DNA of 64,000 bases from an uncultured Chloroflexia bacterium (GTDB taxonomy: Bacteria; Chloroflexota; Dormibacteria; CF-121), in contig CAWCIV010000001.1 of assembly GCA_963795805.1 (NCBI GenBank), forward strand, positions 581,859 to 645,858. Reading direction: 5' to 3'. Both the position numbers and the translations under genes were made by a program. Shown here piece by piece: positions 1 to 62,254 of the stretch; position 1 is the first letter of the stretch; every line of letters begins with the position of its first letter. The notes under the pieces are model-generated. The model did no database searches and was not told the DNA's origin. It worked only from the letters and a program-made list of their open reading frames with translations.

Positions 1-1304
1 GGTGCGGGGCCTTCGACCACGAGGCCGGAACGTACTGGGTGAAGCAGCTCATGATCTGTTTGCCCGCGGGAGCGAGCGTGTCGTCGACCATGGTCGGGAG
101 CACGCCATCGGAGTAGGGGTGCGCTGAGGGCCGGCCGTACTTGGCGTCGTCGAAGGCCTGCTCGAGGTACTCCATCGAGTCGCAGAGCTGGATGAAGGAG
201 CGGGCGGCGGTCGCGGAGTCGGCCTCAGAGAGTCCCGTGAAGCGGGGCGGCTCCGCCAGCGCCAGGTTCACCTTGACCGTGCCCGACCGGGTCTTGTAGC
301 GATCGATTGCCCTGATGAAGTCGGCCGGCAGCTCGGTCGACGCCACCAGGTCGCAGAAGGTGGTCTTCGGATGGGCGTTCGAAATGACCACGCGCGCGTG
401 GACCTCGGTGCCATCGGCGAGCGACGACGCCGGTTGCCCTGCCACCCCCGACGAGGATGCGGGCCACGGTCGCCGCCGGTCCTGATCTCGGCACCGTGCT
501 CGCGGGCGTCCGACGCGATCGCCTCGGAAACGGCGCCGGTGCCGCCCTTGACGAAGGCCCACTCGGCCATCTGCCCTTCGATCTCGCCGATGTAGTGATG
601 CAGCAGTACATAGGCAGTGCCAGGCGTGTACGGGCCTCCATAGGTTCCGATCGCGCCCGAGACGCAGCGGGCCGCCTTGACCTGGGGCGACTCGAACCAT
701 TCTTCGAGCAACTCCGCGACGGAGAGGGTCATCACCTTGACGAAGTCGGCGGTTCCCTGGACGTCGAGGCCCTTCAACTTCCAGGCAAACTTCGCCAGCT
801 CGAGCAGGTCGGCCGGCGACTTCGCGCCCACCGCGGGCGGGGTCATGAGCAGGAGCGGCCGGACGAGCCTGGCGATCTTCGCCAGGTAGGCGCTGAAGGC
901 GCGGCCAGACGTCGGCATCTTTTTTGGAGAATTTTGCGATCTCCTCGTAGGCCTGCTTCGGGTCCTTGGTCAGAAGGAGGTGGGACCCGTCGGGGAAGGG
1001 GACGTAGTAGTCGGCCGCTAGCGGATACAGGCGTCAGGCCATGGCGGTGAAGCTCGAGCTCTCGGATCACCTCCGGCGGCATCAGCGAGAGGACGTAGGA
1101 GAGCGTCGAGACGGTGTAGCCAGGCCAGGGGTGCTCGCTCACCGCCGCCCCGCCGAGCACGTCGCGCCGCTCGAGGACGAGCGTCGTGAGACCCGCCCGG
1201 CCGAGGTATGCCGCCGTCGCGAGGCCGTTGTGCCCGCCTCCGATGATGATCGCGTCGTATTCGGCCGGCACACGGGGGAGTATATCCGCGGACAAACTGG
1301 ACAT
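1..1304 (-). pseudogene. FAD-dependent oxidoreductase (CrtI/phytoene-desaturase-like NAD(P)/FAD oxidoreductase family); N-terminus at 1304, 3' end runs off window; frame broken at least 3-4 times
   Basis: ORF 843-1304 begins with dinucleotide-binding fold DAIIIGGGHNGLATAAYLGRAGL; the continuation appears in two other minus-strand frames (ORF 268-918 SAYLAKIARLVRPLLLMTPP...GGTGAVSEAIA; ORF 225-641 VARILVGGGRATGVV); one shift lies in a T6 run at 920-925. Confidence 0.6.
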
Positions 1305-40130: not shown

Positions 40131-41834
40131 GTGACGTTACGCTGGGACCCGGTCGATGGCGCCGCCGGGTACGTCGTGCAGCGGGCGGACGCGCCAGGCG
40201 GGCCGTTTCAGACCGTTGACCATCATGGCGGCGACGTGCTGGCGGTCCCGGGGCCGACCTATGCCGACACGACGGGGCAGGCGGGTACCCCGTACTGGTA
40301 CGCGATCGCGTCGATCACCTCCGCTGATGGCGCGCATGGCGAGCGATCCGCCCCAGTTCGAGCAACCTCTCGCGAGGAACGAGGTGCAGTCGAGATTCGT
40401 GTCGACGCTCAGCACCCGGTCAAGCCACTCGCCCGGCCCTGGCACATGGTCGGCTCGGAGCGTCTCTCGCAGCTGCTTCATCCCAGGGACGCCAACGGCG
40501 CCGATGTCGGCTTGGAGTTCGCCGAGTCGCTTCGGATTGCCCGGGTGGAGCTGGGGGCCGATCGGGTCCGCGCGCACGGTGTGCTTCACGACGACCTCGG
40601 CTGCTACACCGAGACCGATGGCCGGCCCTGCTATGACTTTGCCTCCGTCGCCCGCGTCTACGACCAGGTCCTGTCGCTCGGGCTGAGACCGGTGGTCGAG
40701 CTCTCGTTCATGCCGCGGGCGCTCGCCAGCAATCCGCAGGCGACCGTCTTTGCCTACAAGGCGATCTCCTCGCCACCAAAAGACTATGCAGCCTGGGGCG
40801 CCCTCGTCCGGGCGCTGGCGCAGTACCTGGTGGATCGCTACGGCGTGGCGGAGGTGGCCGACTGGGGCTTCGAGGTCTGGAACGAGCCCAACCTCGAGCT
40901 CTTCTGGACGGGAAGCCGCGACGACTATTTCCGGCTCTACGATGTCGCCGCGCGCGCCATCAAGACGGTCGACCGGCGGCTCAAGGTCGGCGGTCCGGCG
41001 ACGGCGGCCGCCGGCTGGATCGCCGACTTTGCTGTCTATGCCGCCGATTCCGGCGCCCCGGTGGATTTTCTTTCCACCCATACGTACGGGAATGTCCCAT
41101 TGGACATCGCCGCGACCGCAGCCAACGCCGGTCTCGAGCGGCGGCCCGTCTGGTGGACCGAGTGGGGGGTCAGCCCAACACACTTCGCTCGCATCAACGA
41201 TTCGGTGCTGGGGGCCCCCTTTGTGCTGCACGGGATGTTCTCTGCCATGGACCGCGCCGAGCACCTCGCTTACTGGACGATCTCGGATCATTTCGAGGAG
41301 CTCGGCCGGCCGCCGCGCCTGTTCCATGGCGGCTTCGGGCTGCTTACGGTCGGGAACCTGCGGAAACCGCGCTTCTGGGCGCTCCGGATGCTGGAAATGC
41401 TCGGCTCTGAGCGCCTGAACGTCGCCGTGGCCGGGGACGGGGCTGAGTCGATGGTGCAGGCCATCGCGACCCGCGACGTCGCCGGGATGATCCAGGTGCT
41501 CGTCTGGAACGGAACGATGGATCAGACCAAGCAGGACGGAACCCCCTTGCTCGGCCGGCAGGTTCGGCTCGGGATCGAGGGTCTGGCAACCAGTCGGTAC
41601 ACGCACGAGCACCTGCGGGTCGACCGGGACCACTCCAACGTCAGCCGGGCCTGGGCCGCGCTGGGGTCTCCCGACTGGCCAGACGAGGCAGGGTGGGCTC
41701 ACCTGCGGGCAGCCGACCGCCTGGTCGAGCTCGAGCCGTCCCGGCCCGTGGAAGCCGCAGGAGGCCACCTGGCGATTGACTTCGAGATTCCCATGCCCGG
41801 GGTCTCCCTGGTCCGCCTGACGCCCGCTCAGTAG
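40131..41834 (+). CDS. GH39-family glycoside hydrolase (beta-xylosidase-like) with N-terminal fibronectin-III-like domain
   Basis: clan GH-A catalytic acid/base GFEVWNEPNL and nucleophile region WWTEWG; N-terminal WDPVDGAAGYVVQRADAPGGPF FN3-like. Confidence 0.7.
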   Translation: MTLRWDPVDGAAGYVVQRADAPGGPFQTVDHHGGDVLAVPGPTYADTTGQAGTPYWYAIASITSADGAHGERSAPVRATSREERGAVEIRVDAQHPVKPLARPWHMVGSERLSQLLHPRDANGADVGLEFAESLRIARVELGADRVRAHGVLHDDLGCYTETDGRPCYDFASVARVYDQVLSLGLRPVVELSFMPRALASNPQATVFAYKAISSPPKDYAAWGALVRALAQYLVDRYGVAEVADWGFEVWNEPNLELFWTGSRDDYFRLYDVAARAIKTVDRRLKVGGPATAAAGWIADFAVYAADSGAPVDFLSTHTYGNVPLDIAATAANAGLERRPVWWTEWGVSPTHFARINDSVLGAPFVLHGMFSAMDRAEHLAYWTISDHFEELGRPPRLFHGGFGLLTVGNLRKPRFWALRMLEMLGSERLNVAVAGDGAESMVQAIATRDVAGMIQVLVWNGTMDQTKQDGTPLLGRQVRLGIEGLATSRYTHEHLRVDRDHSNVSRAWAALGSPDWPDEAGWAHLRAADRLVELEPSRPVEAAGGHLAIDFEIPMPGVSLVRLTPAQ

Positions 41835-41981
41835 TCGAACGCCTGTTCGTTTAGGCGGTCCCGAGAGGAAAGCTGGACGGCGGCGTTATACGGCTGGCAT
41901 TATTTGATTGGGACGGGTCGATTGACGACAGCGCAGCTCCGGGGAGCGCGCCCATCCACCCCAAAGGGAAGTTGATCACGT

Positions 41982-42695
41982 TTGCGGCAAGAACCAGCGC
42001 ATATTCTTCGACCACCCGTCCTCACCGCCGGTCAGAACGGCCACACGCGGGGCATCGTTTTCGACTTTGACGGCACGCTGGTCGACAGCTACCCGCTGAT
42101 CGAGGCGGCGTTCGCGCATGTGATGCGCACTCATAATCTGGAAGATCCGGCCCGCGAGCTCTTCCGTCGTTCCAGGGGCCTCCCGCTGCCCGACCAGATG
42201 AAACTGGTCGCCCCGCACATGTGGGAGGACCTGGTGCAGACCTACCGGTCGGTCGACGCCGACCTGGGGCATGCGCAGGTCTTTCGCGGCATCCCGACGC
42301 TCGTCAAGAAGCTGAGTAAAGCCGGCGCGCCGATGGGCGTGGTCTCCTGCAAGCGGCGCGCGCTCGTCGAAGCCGAGCTCGAGGCGGCCGGCCTGCGCCG
42401 GTTCTTCGGGGTCGTGATCGGCTACGAGGACGTCACGCCGCCCAAGCCGGCGCCTGACCCTTTGAACGCGGCGATCGCCAGGCTCGGGCTCAGGAAGATC
42501 AACACGATTTATGTCGGCGACAGCATGGTCGACCTGGAGACCGGTCGGGCGGCGAGAGTGCGCACCGTGTTGGCGGCCTGGGGACTCACGCCTGAGCTTC
42601 GGGAGCGGTTCCGGCATCACCGACTCTGGGCCACGCGGCCCTCGGAGATGCTGGCCATGGTCCTGAATCCGTCGCCGAATGGGAAAGCCGCCTAG
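41982..42695 (+). CDS. HAD-superfamily hydrolase (phosphoglycolate phosphatase-like)
   Basis: motif I VFDFDGTLVDS, motif III/IV ...YVGDSMVD. Confidence 0.7.
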   Translation: MRQEPAHILRPPVLTAGQNGHTRGIVFDFDGTLVDSYPLIEAAFAHVMRTHNLEDPARELFRRSRGLPLPDQMKLVAPHMWEDLVQTYRSVDADLGHAQVFRGIPTLVKKLSKAGAPMGVVSCKRRALVEAELEAAGLRRFFGVVIGYEDVTPPKPAPDPLNAAIARLGLRKINTIYVGDSMVDLETGRAARVRTVLAAWGLTPELRERFRHHRLWATRPSEMLAMVLNPSPNGKAA

Positions 42696-57048: not shown

Positions 57049-57566
57049 CAGTAGTTCGTCCTCATCTGGACCGACACGCTCATGTGCACCGGGTTGCCGA
57101 CAAGCTGCTGCATCAGCGGCGTGTACAGCTGGAAGTCGTACTTGACGTTGACCGTGACGTAATAGTTCGTCGTTCCGCTGACCCATTTGTCGACGCGGTT
57201 GCTGCTGTCGGGGCATCCCGTCGTACTGCCCGTTGAGTCATGGGGCGGGCAGATCTTGATAGACGACGGCGTGATGTTGCTGTAGAGGAGTTCGCTGTCC
57301 ACGGCATTGACGATCGCCTCGTCGGTCTCGACCGGACACGTCGCATAGCCGTTGCCACTCGAGCATGCGGGGTCCGCCGGGCCCGTGTAGATGTTGAGGA
57401 TTGCGACCCGAGCGCCCTCGCGCGCGGAGTTGGTCACCGACACCTGGTAGAAGTAGGCCCGGCCGAAATCGACCAGCCCGAAGGTCAGGAAGGTAAGCAG
57501 GGGCAACACCATCGCCATCTCGACAAGGGACTGGCCTAGGCGCCGCTGCAAGGAGTGGGGTTTCAT
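57048..57566 (-). CDS. TadE-like pseudopilin-like protein
   Basis: LGQSLVEMAMVLPLLTFLTFGLVDFGRAYF TadE N-terminal signature; 172 aa. Confidence 0.65.
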   Translation of the reverse strand: MKPHSLQRRLGQSLVEMAMVLPLLTFLTFGLVDFGRAYFYQVSVTNSAREGARVAILNIYTGPADPACSSGNGYATCPVETDEAIVNAVDSELLYSNITPSSIKICPPHDSTGSTTGCPDSSNRVDKWVSGTTNYYVTVNVKYDFQLYTPLMQQLVGNPVHMSVSVQMRTNY

Positions 57567-57754
57567 GGATTCGTTACCTGGTCTTATGGCCCGTCGCCCT
57601 ACTGCAGATAACGCAAACGGTAATGGTCCGCATCGGGGATACCGATCACGGCTTGTTACAGGTTCCGTTACGACTTGTGCCCCAAAAGTCGCGCCCGGAT
57701 GAATACTCCCGGGAAAGTGACAACGAGCGTGCGTTCCGGCACAAATGTTCCGTG

Positions 57755-57783
57755 TTGCGGCTTGATGGGGGTGTGACTACAGT
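57755..57783 (+). promoter_or_regulatory. candidate sigma-A-type promoter TTGCGG-17 nt-TACAGT, placing transcription start at about 57790-57791 (first base of element E1)
   Basis: TTGnnn/TAnnnT hexamers with 17-nt spacer; same geometry upstream of E2. Confidence 0.35.
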
Positions 57784-57790
57784 TACCCCT

Positions 57791-58037
57791 GCGACCTGTC
57801 AGAAAGCCAGTTAGAGAAGGAAACGACTCTAGTGGGTCGCCGGCGAGGGATTCGCAAGGATCCCACTCTCGGACCGCAAGGTTCGGGGGCCTGGCCCGCA
57901 AGGGCTGGGGAATCGGATGTCGCAAGACGACCGGTTCTGCCGGTGACGAAGGTCTGGCCCGCAAGGGTTAGGCTGGGCGGCGGGATGAAGGCTTGCTGGA
58001 TAACACTGGCGAGTTGTAAACCGTAACGACGGGTCGC
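57791..58037 (+). ncRNA. candidate structured small RNA, copy E1 (about 247 nt), unknown family
   Basis: 5' GCGACCUGUC pairs with 3' GACGGGUCGC (10 bp); conserved AGAAAGCCAG; GAAA-capped hairpin UAGAG-AAGGAAACGA-CUCUA; several CCCGCAAGGG-type GNRA hairpins; conserved 3' GGCGAG..GUAAACCGUAAC; followed by U-rich AUUCUUAUUUAUCU; paralogue E2 at 61907. Confidence 0.5.
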
Positions 58038-58045
58038 ATTCTTAT

Positions 58046-58537
58046 TTATCTGGCGGTTCGGGCCACCTCCGGAACGAGGGGCTCCACGGCGCTGTCGCTG
58101 ATGGTGGTCTGGCGTGGCAGCCGGGTCTTGGTGTCGAAGCGGTAGAGCGCATCCGGCAGGCGTAGCGCGCGGCCCAGTGCCTGCTCGCCCTCGACGCCGG
58201 AGCCCGCCGCGTGGAAGATCCGGCCGAAGAGGAAGTAGAGGGCAAAGCTTTCGGTCGGCGCGACCAGCTCGAGCATGCCGGAGGAGCGATAGTCAGCCAG
58301 CGCTCGCATCAGGTCGGGCAGCGGCGAAGCGGCCAGGGTCCCACGAGAGACGTTGATCCGGCTCTCTTCCCGGCGCCGTTGCAGCCGGGCGAACTGGCGG
58401 CGGCGGGCCGCTCCCCGGGCCACCAGCAGGGCCAGGCACAGGAACACGATGCCTCCGGCAATCGGAATCGCGGGGCTGACTCGAGGATCAAGCGCTGTCA
58501 GGGCCGGGCCGATTTGCCGAGTGAGTTCGTCAAGCAT
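58046..58537 (-). CDS. DUF4388-domain protein with N-terminal TM segment
   Basis: LPDLMRALADYRSSGMLELVAPTESFALYFLFGRIFHAAGSGVEGEQALGRAL matches DUF4388 pattern; N-terminal AIPIAGGIVFLCLALLVARG TM. Confidence 0.55.
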   Translation of the reverse strand: MLDELTRQIGPALTALDPRVSPAIPIAGGIVFLCLALLVARGAARRRQFARLQRRREESRINVSRGTLAASPLPDLMRALADYRSSGMLELVAPTESFALYFLFGRIFHAAGSGVEGEQALGRALRLPDALYRFDTKTRLPRQTTISDSAVEPLVPEVARTAR

Positions 58538-58635
58538 CCGGCCATCCTATGCACGCGCCCGCTCGGTTTCCATCAAATCGACTGTCCGGTTTCCTGATCT
58601 CGGGGCTTGCCTGCCAGCGATAGAATCAAGCTCGA

Positions 58636-59561
58636 TGGAGGCGGCAGCCAGCGCCAGGTTCGACTCCCTGCTCAAGCGGGGCGAACTGATCGAATCGGTC
58701 TCCGAGATGACGCCGGATTACCTGCGCGAGCTGAAGCACACCCTGATCGTGTCGGGGGACACGGAGCTGATCTCGGCGCCGGCCTACTACCTGGCGGCCA
58801 AGAAGGCGCCCAGCGTGAACGCCTTTATGACCGGCATCGCCATCATCCAGGACGAGCTGGCCCACGCGCACATCGCCTATCACATTCTCGAGGAGCTGGG
58901 CGAGAGCCAGGAGGCGCTGATCTTCAAGCGGGATCCCAAGGCGTTTCGGTACCCATACGCCTTCGACGTGCCGCTGGAGAGCTGGACGGAGCTCGTCGTC
59001 GCCAATGCGATGTACGACCAGGCGGGCTTTTGCCTCCTCGGGGATATCCACGAACAATGTTCCTACGGGCCCTGGAAGCGGGGGTTGGTTAAAGTCATGG
59101 CCGAGGAGAATTTTCACTTGCGCAATGGGCGCAACTGGTCGAAGCGAATCAGCCAGGCGGGCGGCGCCGCTCGCGAGGAGCTCCAAACCGCCGTCGACTG
59201 GATGTTCCCCTTGACGGTTGAGTGGTTCGGGCTGCCGGACAGCCTGAAGCAGCACAGCGCCCAGCTCGACTATCGATTGAAAGGCCTGACCAACGACCAG
59301 CTCCGCCAGCAATGGTTGTCACTGGTGGTGCCCTTCATGGAGTCGATCGGCGTCAAGGTGCCGGCCCATCTGGACGGCCAGGCTTTCGTGCTCGATTACC
59401 CGTTTCCCTGCACCTTCGATGCCGAAGCGAAGCGATGGGACTTCAACGACCCGTGCAGCTGGGATGCGGTGATGTCTCGCTGGCGCGCCCGTGGCCCACG
59501 CAATACGGAGATGGTCGCGCTCTTCCAGGAGAGCTTCAGCAAATTCCAGGTCCACGCATGA
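58636..59561 (+). CDS. paaA: 1,2-phenylacetyl-CoA epoxidase subunit A-like diiron oxygenase (PaaA-like)
   Basis: SYGPWKRGLVKVMAEENFHLRNG and RLKGLTNDQLRQQWLSLVVPFMESIGVKVP align with E. coli PaaA [23 protein letters not shown] / [30 protein letters not shown]. Confidence 0.8.
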
Positions 59562-61826: not shown

Positions 61827-61871
61827 CTCTACCCAGGGGTCGAATGCCTGTTTGCGAACCGCAGTTCGGAG

Positions 61872-61900
61872 TTGTGCGAGGAATCGGCGGCACGTACGCT
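61872..61900 (+). promoter_or_regulatory. candidate sigma-A-type promoter TTGTGC-17 nt-TACGCT, placing transcription start at about 61907 (first base of element E2)
   Basis: same hexamer/spacer geometry as the E1 promoter. Confidence 0.35.
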
Positions 61901-61906
61901 ACGCCG

Positions 61907-62082
61907 GCGACCTGTCAGAAAGCCAGCCGGTGACGGAAACGACACCGGTAAGCTCCCGAGGACCGGGGCCGCAAGGTCTCGGCTAGTACGGAGCGAAGGG
62001 TCTCTCGGAAACGGGTGACCTGGGCGGCGGAAACGAGTCGCTGGGTCACACCGGCGAGGAGTAAGCCGTAACGACGGGTCGC
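61907..62082 (+). ncRNA. candidate structured small RNA, copy E2 (about 176 nt), paralogue of E1
   Basis: identical 10-bp terminal helix and AGAAAGCCAG; hairpin CCGGUG-ACGGAAACGA-CACCGG (stem fully compensatory relative to E1, loop conserved); conserved CUGGGCGGCGG and GGCGAG..GUAAGCCGUAAC; followed by UUCAUUUUUCCU. Confidence 0.5.
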
Positions 62083-62225
62083 TTCATTTTTCCTGCAGGT
62101 CTGCTGGCTCCTCCTTCCCGAGCCTGGTGGACCTGCGCGCGTCAGGATCGGGCGTTCCGTGCCCGCTCGTGCCTGTTTGTTAGGAAATATTAGAACTAAC
62201 ATCTTCGCAGATCTTTACAAACTGT

Positions 62226-62254
62226 TGACTGAACGCCTGGAGCGGGTTAGGGTG
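62226..62254 (+). promoter_or_regulatory. candidate promoter TTGACT-17 nt-TAGGGT for the BNR-repeat gene
   Basis: lower-GC stretch 62170-62235 with TTGACT; would give a ~55-nt leader that excludes E2. Confidence 0.3.

Follow-up and report, generated by a model that had tools for sequence, protein, structure and literature searches.

The DNA considered here is a stretch of 64,000 nucleotides of contig CAWCIV010000001.1 from an uncultured Chloroflexia bacterium (referred to below as the window; G+C content 65.8%). Two related elements, E1 and E2, lie on its + strand. E1 is supported as the gene for an independently transcribed structured non-coding RNA with its own promoter, and E1 and E2 make up a previously undescribed RNA family, a new family of a known kind. 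An RNA gene of this sort had been proposed for E1 in an earlier inspection of the letters of the window (the sequence-only reading), which named a TTGCGG-17-TACAGT promoter and a ten-base-pair terminal helix; both can be read directly in the DNA. The parts of E1 are given below in window positions, with the basis of each assignment in brackets.

57755–57783, + strand: promoter of E1, with the −35 hexamer TTGCGG at 57755–57760, a 17-nt spacer and the −10 hexamer TACAGT at 57778–57783 (sequence reading, conservation).
57791–58037, + strand: RNA core of E1, 247 nt (minimum free energy folding, RNAalifold, nhmmer).
57791–57800, + strand: 5' strand of the closing helix P1, GCGACCUGUC (pairs with 58028–58037).
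57801–57809, + strand: junction AGAAA, then GCC, the 5' strand of a proposed 3-bp helix P2, then A (invariant in all copies, though in part because both scan patterns included this segment).
57810–57833, + strand: hairpin P3 with the apical part AAG-GAAA-CGA (covarying stem, conserved apex).
57836–57947, + strand: E1-type-specific domain Pa, in which a stem closes a five-way junction that bears four GNRA-capped hairpins (covariation).
57951–57974, + strand: hairpin Pb, GGUCUGGCCC-GCAA-GGGUUAGGC (common to E2, where the cap is GAAA).
57976–58024, + strand: 3' strand of P2, GGC, then P5, in which an internal loop separates the base GCGG/CCGU from a distal hairpin whose loop is AUAACA (alignment).
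58025–58037, + strand: junction AAC, then the 3' strand of P1, GACGGGUCGC, at 58028–58037 (alignment).
58038–58051, + strand: U-rich tail AUUCUUAUUUAUCU, a probable termination site (conserved tail consensus).

Homologues were collected by two pattern scans. A degenerate pattern derived from the 5' part shared by E1 and E2 and applied to one genome per species matched 57 stretches, four or five of which are chance matches in unrelated genomes; the remaining ones belong to metagenome-assembled genomes (MAGs) labelled Candidatus Dormiibacterota or to soil MAGs labelled "Chloroflexi bacterium CF_", and a few of the matched MAGs carry the labels Limnocylindria, Eisenbacteria or Binatus. A second pattern applied to metagenomes matched at least 120 soil contigs. 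The nhmmer profiles recovered all copies. In all fetched DNA the profile searches gave 90 full copies of E1 (246–248 nt plus one of 209 nt; 70 distinct) and 94 full copies of E2 (175–180 nt; 71 distinct), nearly all of them from Dormibacterota MAGs or soil contigs. The E1 core of the window is matched by its profile from end to end (E = 5e-83), and the E1 region of L019, a Dormiibacterota MAG, is nearly identical to that of the window, which places the window in this phylum. Exactly two copies, E1 and E2, were found in the window by blastn and nhmmer. On contigs with both types E1 lies upstream of E2 on the same strand at a distance of 2.7–6.5 kb, with one inverted exception. As far as sampled, the family is restricted to Dormibacterota with one copy of each type per locus. 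The sequence-only reading had allowed for a lineage-specific repeat devoid of further homologues; roughly 180 homologues, with a single E1 and a single E2 at each locus, speak against that. A repetitive or mobile element (REP, MITE or an IS end) was rejected as well, on the two copies in 64 kb, the single copy of each type per locus and the fixed synteny.

The promoter is positioned precisely relative to the RNA. A gap of 7 nt separates TACAGT from G57791, the first base of P1, and the arrangement TTGnnn-16..18-TAnnnT at 5–8 nt before the first G of P1 is kept in all 146 distinct upstream regions (72/72 for E1 and 74/74 for E2). The sequence of the spacer varies among the homologues, while the hexamers, their spacing and the distance to the helix stay. 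At the other end, a G+C-rich 10-bp helix is followed by a U-rich tract in all copies; the genomic T content for comparison is 18%. The tail of E1 described in the sequence-only reading is thus present at 58038–58051 and conserved. Over 54 distinct E1 tails its consensus is AtT.ttTTt.cc, and U makes up on average 7 of the first 12 nt; E2 tails have a mean of 6.2 U within the same distance. It is plausible that the U-tract of E1 is a true terminator; both the start and the end of the E1 transcript would lie at positions deduced from these sequence features.

The fold of E1 is unusually stable. For the 261-nt sequence the minimum free energy is −139 kcal/mol against −96.7 ± 4.7 kcal/mol for shuffled sequences (z = −9.0). 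One GAAA-capped hairpin (P3) and five GCAA-capped hairpins lie inside the 10-bp closing helix, as the sequence-only reading had seen in outline. RNAalifold, applied to a first set of 24 E1-type and 32 E2-type sequences, gave 93 and 49 base pairs, respectively. In this set 99.0% (E1) and 98.7% (E2) of the paired cells hold standard pairs against 26–46% with slid partners (32–46% for E1 alone), and changes on both sides of a pair occur in 20 pairs of E1 and 12 pairs of E2 against 1–7 in the slid controls; none of 500 shuffles equalled the observed values. In the larger set of all distinct sequences (70 E1-type and 71 E2-type) both-side changes are found in 31 of the 93 pairs of E1 and 15 of the 49 pairs of E2. 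Standard pairs make up 98.9% (E1) and 99.1% (E2) when this set is read on the + strand and 78.8% and 81.1% when it is read on the − strand. This difference, which comes from G·U pairs, identifies the + strand as the RNA strand. The base pairs of E1 and E2 are therefore shown to be kept by compensatory substitutions on one strand.

The order of parts is the same in both types: P1, AGAAA, P2 (GCC/GGC), P3, the type-specific Pa, Pb, P5 and finally AAC with the 3' strand of P1. Variation in the ten pairs of P1 consists mostly of wobble transitions (U-G/U-A, G-C/G-U), and the same C-G to U-A compensation is present in two copies, one of them L028. The stem of P3 is fully compensated, UUAGAG/CUCUAG in E1 against CCGGUG/CACCGG in E2, under an apex A(A/C)GGAAACGA common to both types (GGAAACGA belonged to the scan patterns). 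The helices of Pa (helices 4–8 of the E1 fold) contain 14 pairs with both-side changes, and their tetraloops interchange GCAA, GUGA and GAAA across homologues. The distal stem of P5 exhibits C-G/U-G and G-U/G-C transitions over its invariant base. The invariant core of both paralogues is formed by P1, AGAAA, GCC/GGC, the P3 apex AAG-GAAA-CGA, CUGGGCGGCGG, P5 and CCGUAAC; variable GNRA-capped helices extend from it.

Two natural variants depart from these lengths: a 117-nt one at L013:3272–3388 (− strand), from which Pa and the greater part of Pb are missing, and a deletion variant of the E1 type, 209 nt long, at L167:7385–7593 (+ strand). If real and not assembly artefacts, they define a minimal core.

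E2, taken as a relative of E1 in the sequence-only reading, is indeed its paralogue. Its parts are the following.

61872–61900, + strand: promoter of E2, TTGTGC, 17 nt, TACGCT (sequence reading, conservation).
61907–62082, + strand: RNA core of E2, 176 nt, paralogue of E1 (same P1, P2, P3, Pb and P5).
62083–62136, + strand: 3' extension of E2, a U-rich linker (62083–62094) and a 42-nt hairpin (62095–62136) (conserved in tails).

The sequence in common with E1 comprises the first 20 nt, the P3 apex and the last ~60 nt, and Pa is cut down to one GCAA hairpin atop a loop-E-like AGUA/GAA internal loop. Of 67 distinct E2 tails, 63 contain the hairpin of the 3' extension. A conserved GCCUUCCC(G/A)AGC is found in its loop; in the window the loop reads CUCCUCCUUCCC, which is anti-Shine-Dalgarno-like. 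Changes in the stem from clade to clade are of the C-G/U-G and G-C/G-U kinds, so the hairpin belongs to a + strand RNA. Being a conserved + strand hairpin beyond the U-tract, it also indicates that E2 transcripts read through this tract.

In the 180-nt E2 subclade (L003, L016, L050) the CCUUCCC hairpin is swapped for a G+C-rich one, CCCUCCCCGCGG...GGGGGGAGG, and in L003 and L050 it is followed by a short repeat of the E2 3' end with its U-tract (GGGTCGCTTCAGTTTTCC in L003, GGGTGGCTTCAATTTTCC in L050).

The surroundings of the two elements are conserved. To the left of E1, on the opposite strand, lie genes for thymidine phosphorylase, a TadG-like protein and two TadE proteins. E1 is followed by variable small genes, often on the opposite strand (in the window, one for a DUF4388 protein), then by a paaABCD-like cluster formed by paaA, a gene for a FeS_assembly_P protein, paaB and paaC-like genes, sometimes with an aminotransferase gene, and by a gene for a UbiE-type methyltransferase. 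E2 comes next, and after it either a gene for a secreted BNR-like protein of ~600 amino acids or an opposite-strand HtrA gene. The left-hand and internal neighbours in the window were identified by a Pfam scan and the rest by reading of cluster sequences. The paaA gene is preceded by TAGAAT-N8-ATG both where it starts 600 nt from E1 (58621–58637 in the window) and where it starts 54 nt from it (L033, L106), which suggests that the mRNA of the paa-like operon may be leaderless or near-leaderless. The BNR-like gene has its own promoter as well, TTGTTT-17-TAnnGT. Since paaA and the BNR-like gene have promoters of their own, E1 and E2 are not their leaders; in many loci opposite-strand genes also separate E1 from the next same-strand gene. 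A leader of either gene was rejected on these two grounds, and the independent transcription claimed in the sequence-only reading is borne out by them.

No known family accommodates the two RNAs. The sequence-only reading had not been able to name one and advised an Rfam scan; Rfam 15 gave no match at gathering score in the whole window, and at E ≤ 10 over 57500–58200 and 61850–62200 it gave only noise lying outside the RNAs (ilvB-OMG, 12 bits against a threshold of 95.9; mir-330, 14 bits against 60). A full-text literature search returned no match to the E1 and E2 sequences apart from unrelated primers, and no paper combining Dormibacterota with structured RNAs or LexA. A pattern scan of viral contigs and a distant BLAST against plasmids and phages were without match, so the element is not mobile or viral. 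Reading of the fold and the sequence served to set aside the hammerhead, hairpin, twister and RNase P-like cores, as well as a c-di-GMP-I-like resemblance, SRP and tmRNA. 6S RNA was rejected on the multi-branched fold (four to eight hairpins inside P1, not a rod) and the lack of a 6S model match, and Y RNA of the YrlA type on the lack of a recognisable rsr-like gene among the neighbours, as identified by Pfam scan and by reading, and of a GUUCGAAUC-type T-loop in the sequence.

A 13-codon mini-ORF (MKACWITLASCKP, 57986–58027), which the sequence-only reading had found inside E1 and called not conserved in E2, lies in P5. It is absent from 66 of the 71 E2 copies, as stated; the frame is open in E1-type copies and, contrary to that statement, in the 180-nt E2 subclade. 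Among its 12 nucleotide variants there are 11 different peptides, some copies have lost the stop, and the changes are wobble and compensatory changes of the P5 helix. A small protein or type I toxin was therefore rejected: every change is nonsynonymous, the helix is preserved, and the open frame is a by-product of P5.

Directly 5' of the −35 hexamers both genes carry dyads that resemble operators.

57724–57737, no strand assigned: distal dyad of E1 (box A), CGAGC-GTGC-GTTCC, a weaker copy of GAAC-N4-GTTC (conserved consensus).
57739–57750, no strand assigned: proximal dyad of E1 (box B), GCAC-AAAT-GTTC, with one mismatch to GAAC-N4-GTTC (ends 4 nt before the −35 hexamer).
61841–61868, no strand assigned: tandem dyads of E2, CGAATGCCTGTTTG at 61841–61854 and the perfect CGAAC-CGCA-GTTCG at 61855–61868 (conserved).

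The consensus of the E1 block is ..aaaCGAgcG...GTT.g.gAACaaAtGTTCCGTaTTGCGG, or in shorter form ..aaaCGAgcG...GTT.g.gAAC... A strict GAAC-N4-GTTY proximal dyad is present in 52 of the 72 distinct E1 and 67 of the 74 distinct E2 upstream regions, and a second, weaker dyad lies 2 nt upstream of it. The tandem dyads are kept in nearly all homologues. Conserved half-sites around an N4 spacer of variable sequence, as seen in both paralogues, are the hallmark of a dimeric DNA-binding protein. Apart from the copies at the E promoters, the 1.17 Mb of fetched DNA contains a single strict 14-mer, at position 41836 of the window; a loose dyad scan of the window (52 matches against 47 expected) was uninformative. 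The conserved sites make it well supported that E1 and E2 would be co-regulated by one factor through these dyads. The operators of Rex and PhoP were set aside, their dyad spacing being wrong. GAAC-N4-GTTC is the LexA box of Firmicutes and Actinobacteria, and LexA sites are on record as tandem pairs with a gap of 2 bp (PMC4951493). Whether the factor would be LexA is, on the motif, roughly a toss-up. Signatures of recA, lexA, uvrA, uvrB, ruvB and recN were found neither in the window nor in the 1.17 Mb of fetched loci.

The single other site, the perfect CGAAC-GCCT-GTTCG at 41836–41849, lies just past the stop of ORF 40131–41834 (a putative glycosidase by reading) and ~130 nt before the + strand ORF 41982–42695 (a putative HAD-type hydrolase by reading). 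It could be a chance occurrence or a third target of the same factor.

Comparison with known systems places E1 and E2 among the large orphan RNAs. With raiA, ROOL, GOLLD and OLE they share transcription of their own, a length of 170–250 nt or more, covarying multi-junction folds, conserved junctions, GNRA caps and the lineage-restricted distribution of an orphan RNA. They match none of the Rfam models of these RNAs, their host is Dormibacterota, and they differ in being two paralogues in a fixed locus with an operator-like dyad at the promoter. In the latter respect they are reminiscent of CsrB/CsrC, RsmY/RsmZ, GlmY/GlmZ, 6S-1/6S-2 and YrlA/YrlB, where two homologous RNAs of different length have long been kept side by side; the common core and promoter architecture of the pair suggest that one regulator serves both and that their roles are related without being identical. 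However, E1 and E2 lack the repeated GGA loops of CsrB-type RNAs, their fold is unlike the 6S rod with its central bubble, and neither the tRNA-like T-arm of Y RNA nor an adjacent rsr is present. LexA-controlled small RNA genes, with the LexA box variants of Chloroflexi, are alike in the tandem GAAC/GTTC dyads with a 4-nt spacer upstream of −35; in E1 and E2 the sites occupy positions around −40 to −65 and leave the −10 hexamer and the start uncovered. Known SOS-controlled small RNAs, e.g. those of type I toxin-antitoxin loci, are short and work by antisense regulation, in contrast to a multi-junction RNA of 250 nt.

Taken together, these data are best accounted for by a new family of structured RNAs that are transcribed independently and act in trans, probably protein-binding and possibly SOS-controlled; the probability of this explanation is estimated at about 0.6, and from the above features we infer a trans-acting mode, a partner protein and control by LexA. 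A sigma-A-type promoter would transcribe E1 alone, with the first G of P1 or a base beside it as the start, and the transcript would most likely end at the U-tract after P1. The folded RNA would act in trans, its invariant core being recognised by, or sequestering, a protein partner and its peripheral helices serving as a scaffold. This mode is favoured since P1 and the junctions are conserved in sequence and not in pairing alone and since no accessible seed is common to both RNAs; it is the most likely mode, at somewhat less than an even chance. The C/U-rich loop CCUUCCC of E2 could pair with Shine-Dalgarno-like GGGAAGG. The tandem GAAC-N4-GTTC operators beside the −35 hexamers would co-regulate both genes, and the fit to LexA would make the RNAs DNA-damage inducible. 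A bolder version, tentative and in our estimate unlikely, is that E1 and E2 are the RNA parts of a Dormibacterota-specific stress response, switched by LexA and acting as a ribonucleoprotein scaffold, a protein sponge or a catalytic or ligand-binding RNA, not as antisense RNA.

Several points weigh against this proposal. A simple scan for the sigma-70 consensus (TTGACA/TATAAT) made no call at all; the promoters of E1 and E2 fit only the looser TTGnnn/TAnnnT type. A simple terminator scan did not call P1 with its U-tract either, since P1 is a long-range helix enclosing 227 nt, and the U-tract of E2, to judge from the hairpin beyond it, probably is not a fully efficient terminator, which weakens the reading of that tract as the end of E2. 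The base of P5 and the 3-bp P2 (GCC/GGC) are predicted, being invariant and hence free of covariation proof, and the invariance of the core is partly imposed, as both scans demanded an exact match to a part of it. LexA control rests on motif resemblance, with the dyads upstream of −35 and not over the core promoter. Finally, no candidate partner protein is consistently encoded beside E1 and E2, where only the Tad pilus, the Paa-like oxygenase, the methyltransferase and the secreted BNR-like protein are found.

The rival explanations concern both the level and the mode of action. E1 could be a cis-acting leader or riboswitch in which a ligand is sensed and P1 with the U-tract either terminates transcription or allows read-through into the paa-like operon, with E2 acting likewise for the BNR-like gene. 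The closing P1, the conserved junctions and the U-tract directly abutting P1 are indeed those of a riboswitch aptamer with its terminator, the junction-rich core with invariant unpaired purines is aptamer-like, E1 and E2 are co-directional with the paa cluster and the BNR-like gene (paaA following E1 by 54 nt in L033 and L106), and E2 transcripts evidently pass the U-tract. Against this, paaA keeps its leaderless-type signal whether adjacent or 600 nt away, the BNR-like gene keeps its promoter, and opposite-strand genes stand between E1 and paaA in most loci and after E2 (HtrA) in some. The two downstream gene sets are functionally unrelated despite near-identical cores, the two paralogues have no conserved alternative anti-terminator pairing in common, and there is neither a dependent downstream gene nor a riboswitch model match, which leaves this explanation highly improbable. 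The alternative that E1 and E2 are DNA-level direct repeats (recombination sites or mobile-island ends) around the paa-like cluster draws on their direct orientation at 2.7–6.5 kb and on their always flanking the same cluster. It is scarcely credible given that compensatory and G·U-preserving changes keep the helices on one strand only, a constraint of the RNA level, and that each repeat has its own conserved promoter; moreover, there is no recombinase, target-site duplication or further copy, the elements are absent from the phage, plasmid and viral collections, and the arrangement is stable across the phylum.

Among trans-acting modes, a base-pairing small RNA would use the body for stability and the E2 loop CCUUCCC, the P3 apex and the P5 loop for pairing with ribosome-binding sites of mRNAs. 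The apical loop of E2 on its long stem (the 63 of 67 tails mentioned above, anti-Shine-Dalgarno-like in the window) would suit this mode, as would the U-rich single-stranded linker preceding it, a feature of many small RNAs. Yet E1 lacks a 3' hairpin of the E2 type, junctions and helices rather than an accessible seed are the most conserved parts of both RNAs, and the target search in the window yielded nothing for the E2 loop beyond scattered 8–10-nt matches without a consistent position; this mode is rather unlikely. A catalytic RNA or a self-assembling RNA-only particle, comparable with ROOL, GOLLD and raiA, would agree with the strict length, the invariant junction nucleotides, the many GNRA tetraloops with their possible tertiary or intermolecular contacts and the loop-E-like AGUA/GAA of E2. 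This has to be held very doubtful, as no ribozyme or ornate-RNA model of Rfam matches even at E ≤ 10, the junction strands (5, 1 and 3 nt, in order) by reading do not fit the hammerhead core, and reading of the sequence revealed neither a tetraloop-receptor motif nor a palindromic kissing loop. The trans-acting, probably protein-binding family remains the preferred explanation.

Dormibacterota, abundant members of soil and Antarctic desert communities, have not been cultured; all that is known of them comes from MAGs, and we know of no non-coding RNA biology described for them. A well-supported family of ~180 sequences with extensive covariation and conserved promoters is ready for covariance models, Rfam submission and structural work, and its organisation is unusual: two paralogues of fixed length with a common invariant core and a common operator. 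If the dyad is a LexA site, the RNAs would represent a new type of effector in the SOS response, to our knowledge the first large multi-junction structured RNAs under SOS control, and would open a way into the regulation of an uncultured phylum; otherwise the dyad still marks a small searchable regulon.

Two further regions adjoin the RNA genes. Downstream of E2, at 62180–62240 in the window and likewise in L011, L016 and L046, there is an A+T-rich stretch with repeated TTAACA...GTTGAC and TTGAC words; upstream of the BNR-like gene of the window's clade it may be a promoter or operator array. The other region is the tadE–E1 intergenic block 57567–57735, which is conserved across the phylum. 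The fragment CCGTTACGAC, found at 57666 and placed by the sequence-only reading at about 57664 as related to E1, lies in this separately conserved block and is no fragment of E; a third copy of E was rejected there, as neither blastn nor nhmmer finds one. The block contains repeated GTTAC, GTAAC and GTAAG words (CTACTGCAGATAACGCAAACGGTAAgGG ... CCTTACAGGTCCCGTTACGAC) and a small covarying hairpin, CGACUUG/CGGGUCG, with weak consensus folding on both strands. It is probably a regulatory region or 5' untranslated region of the tad operon.

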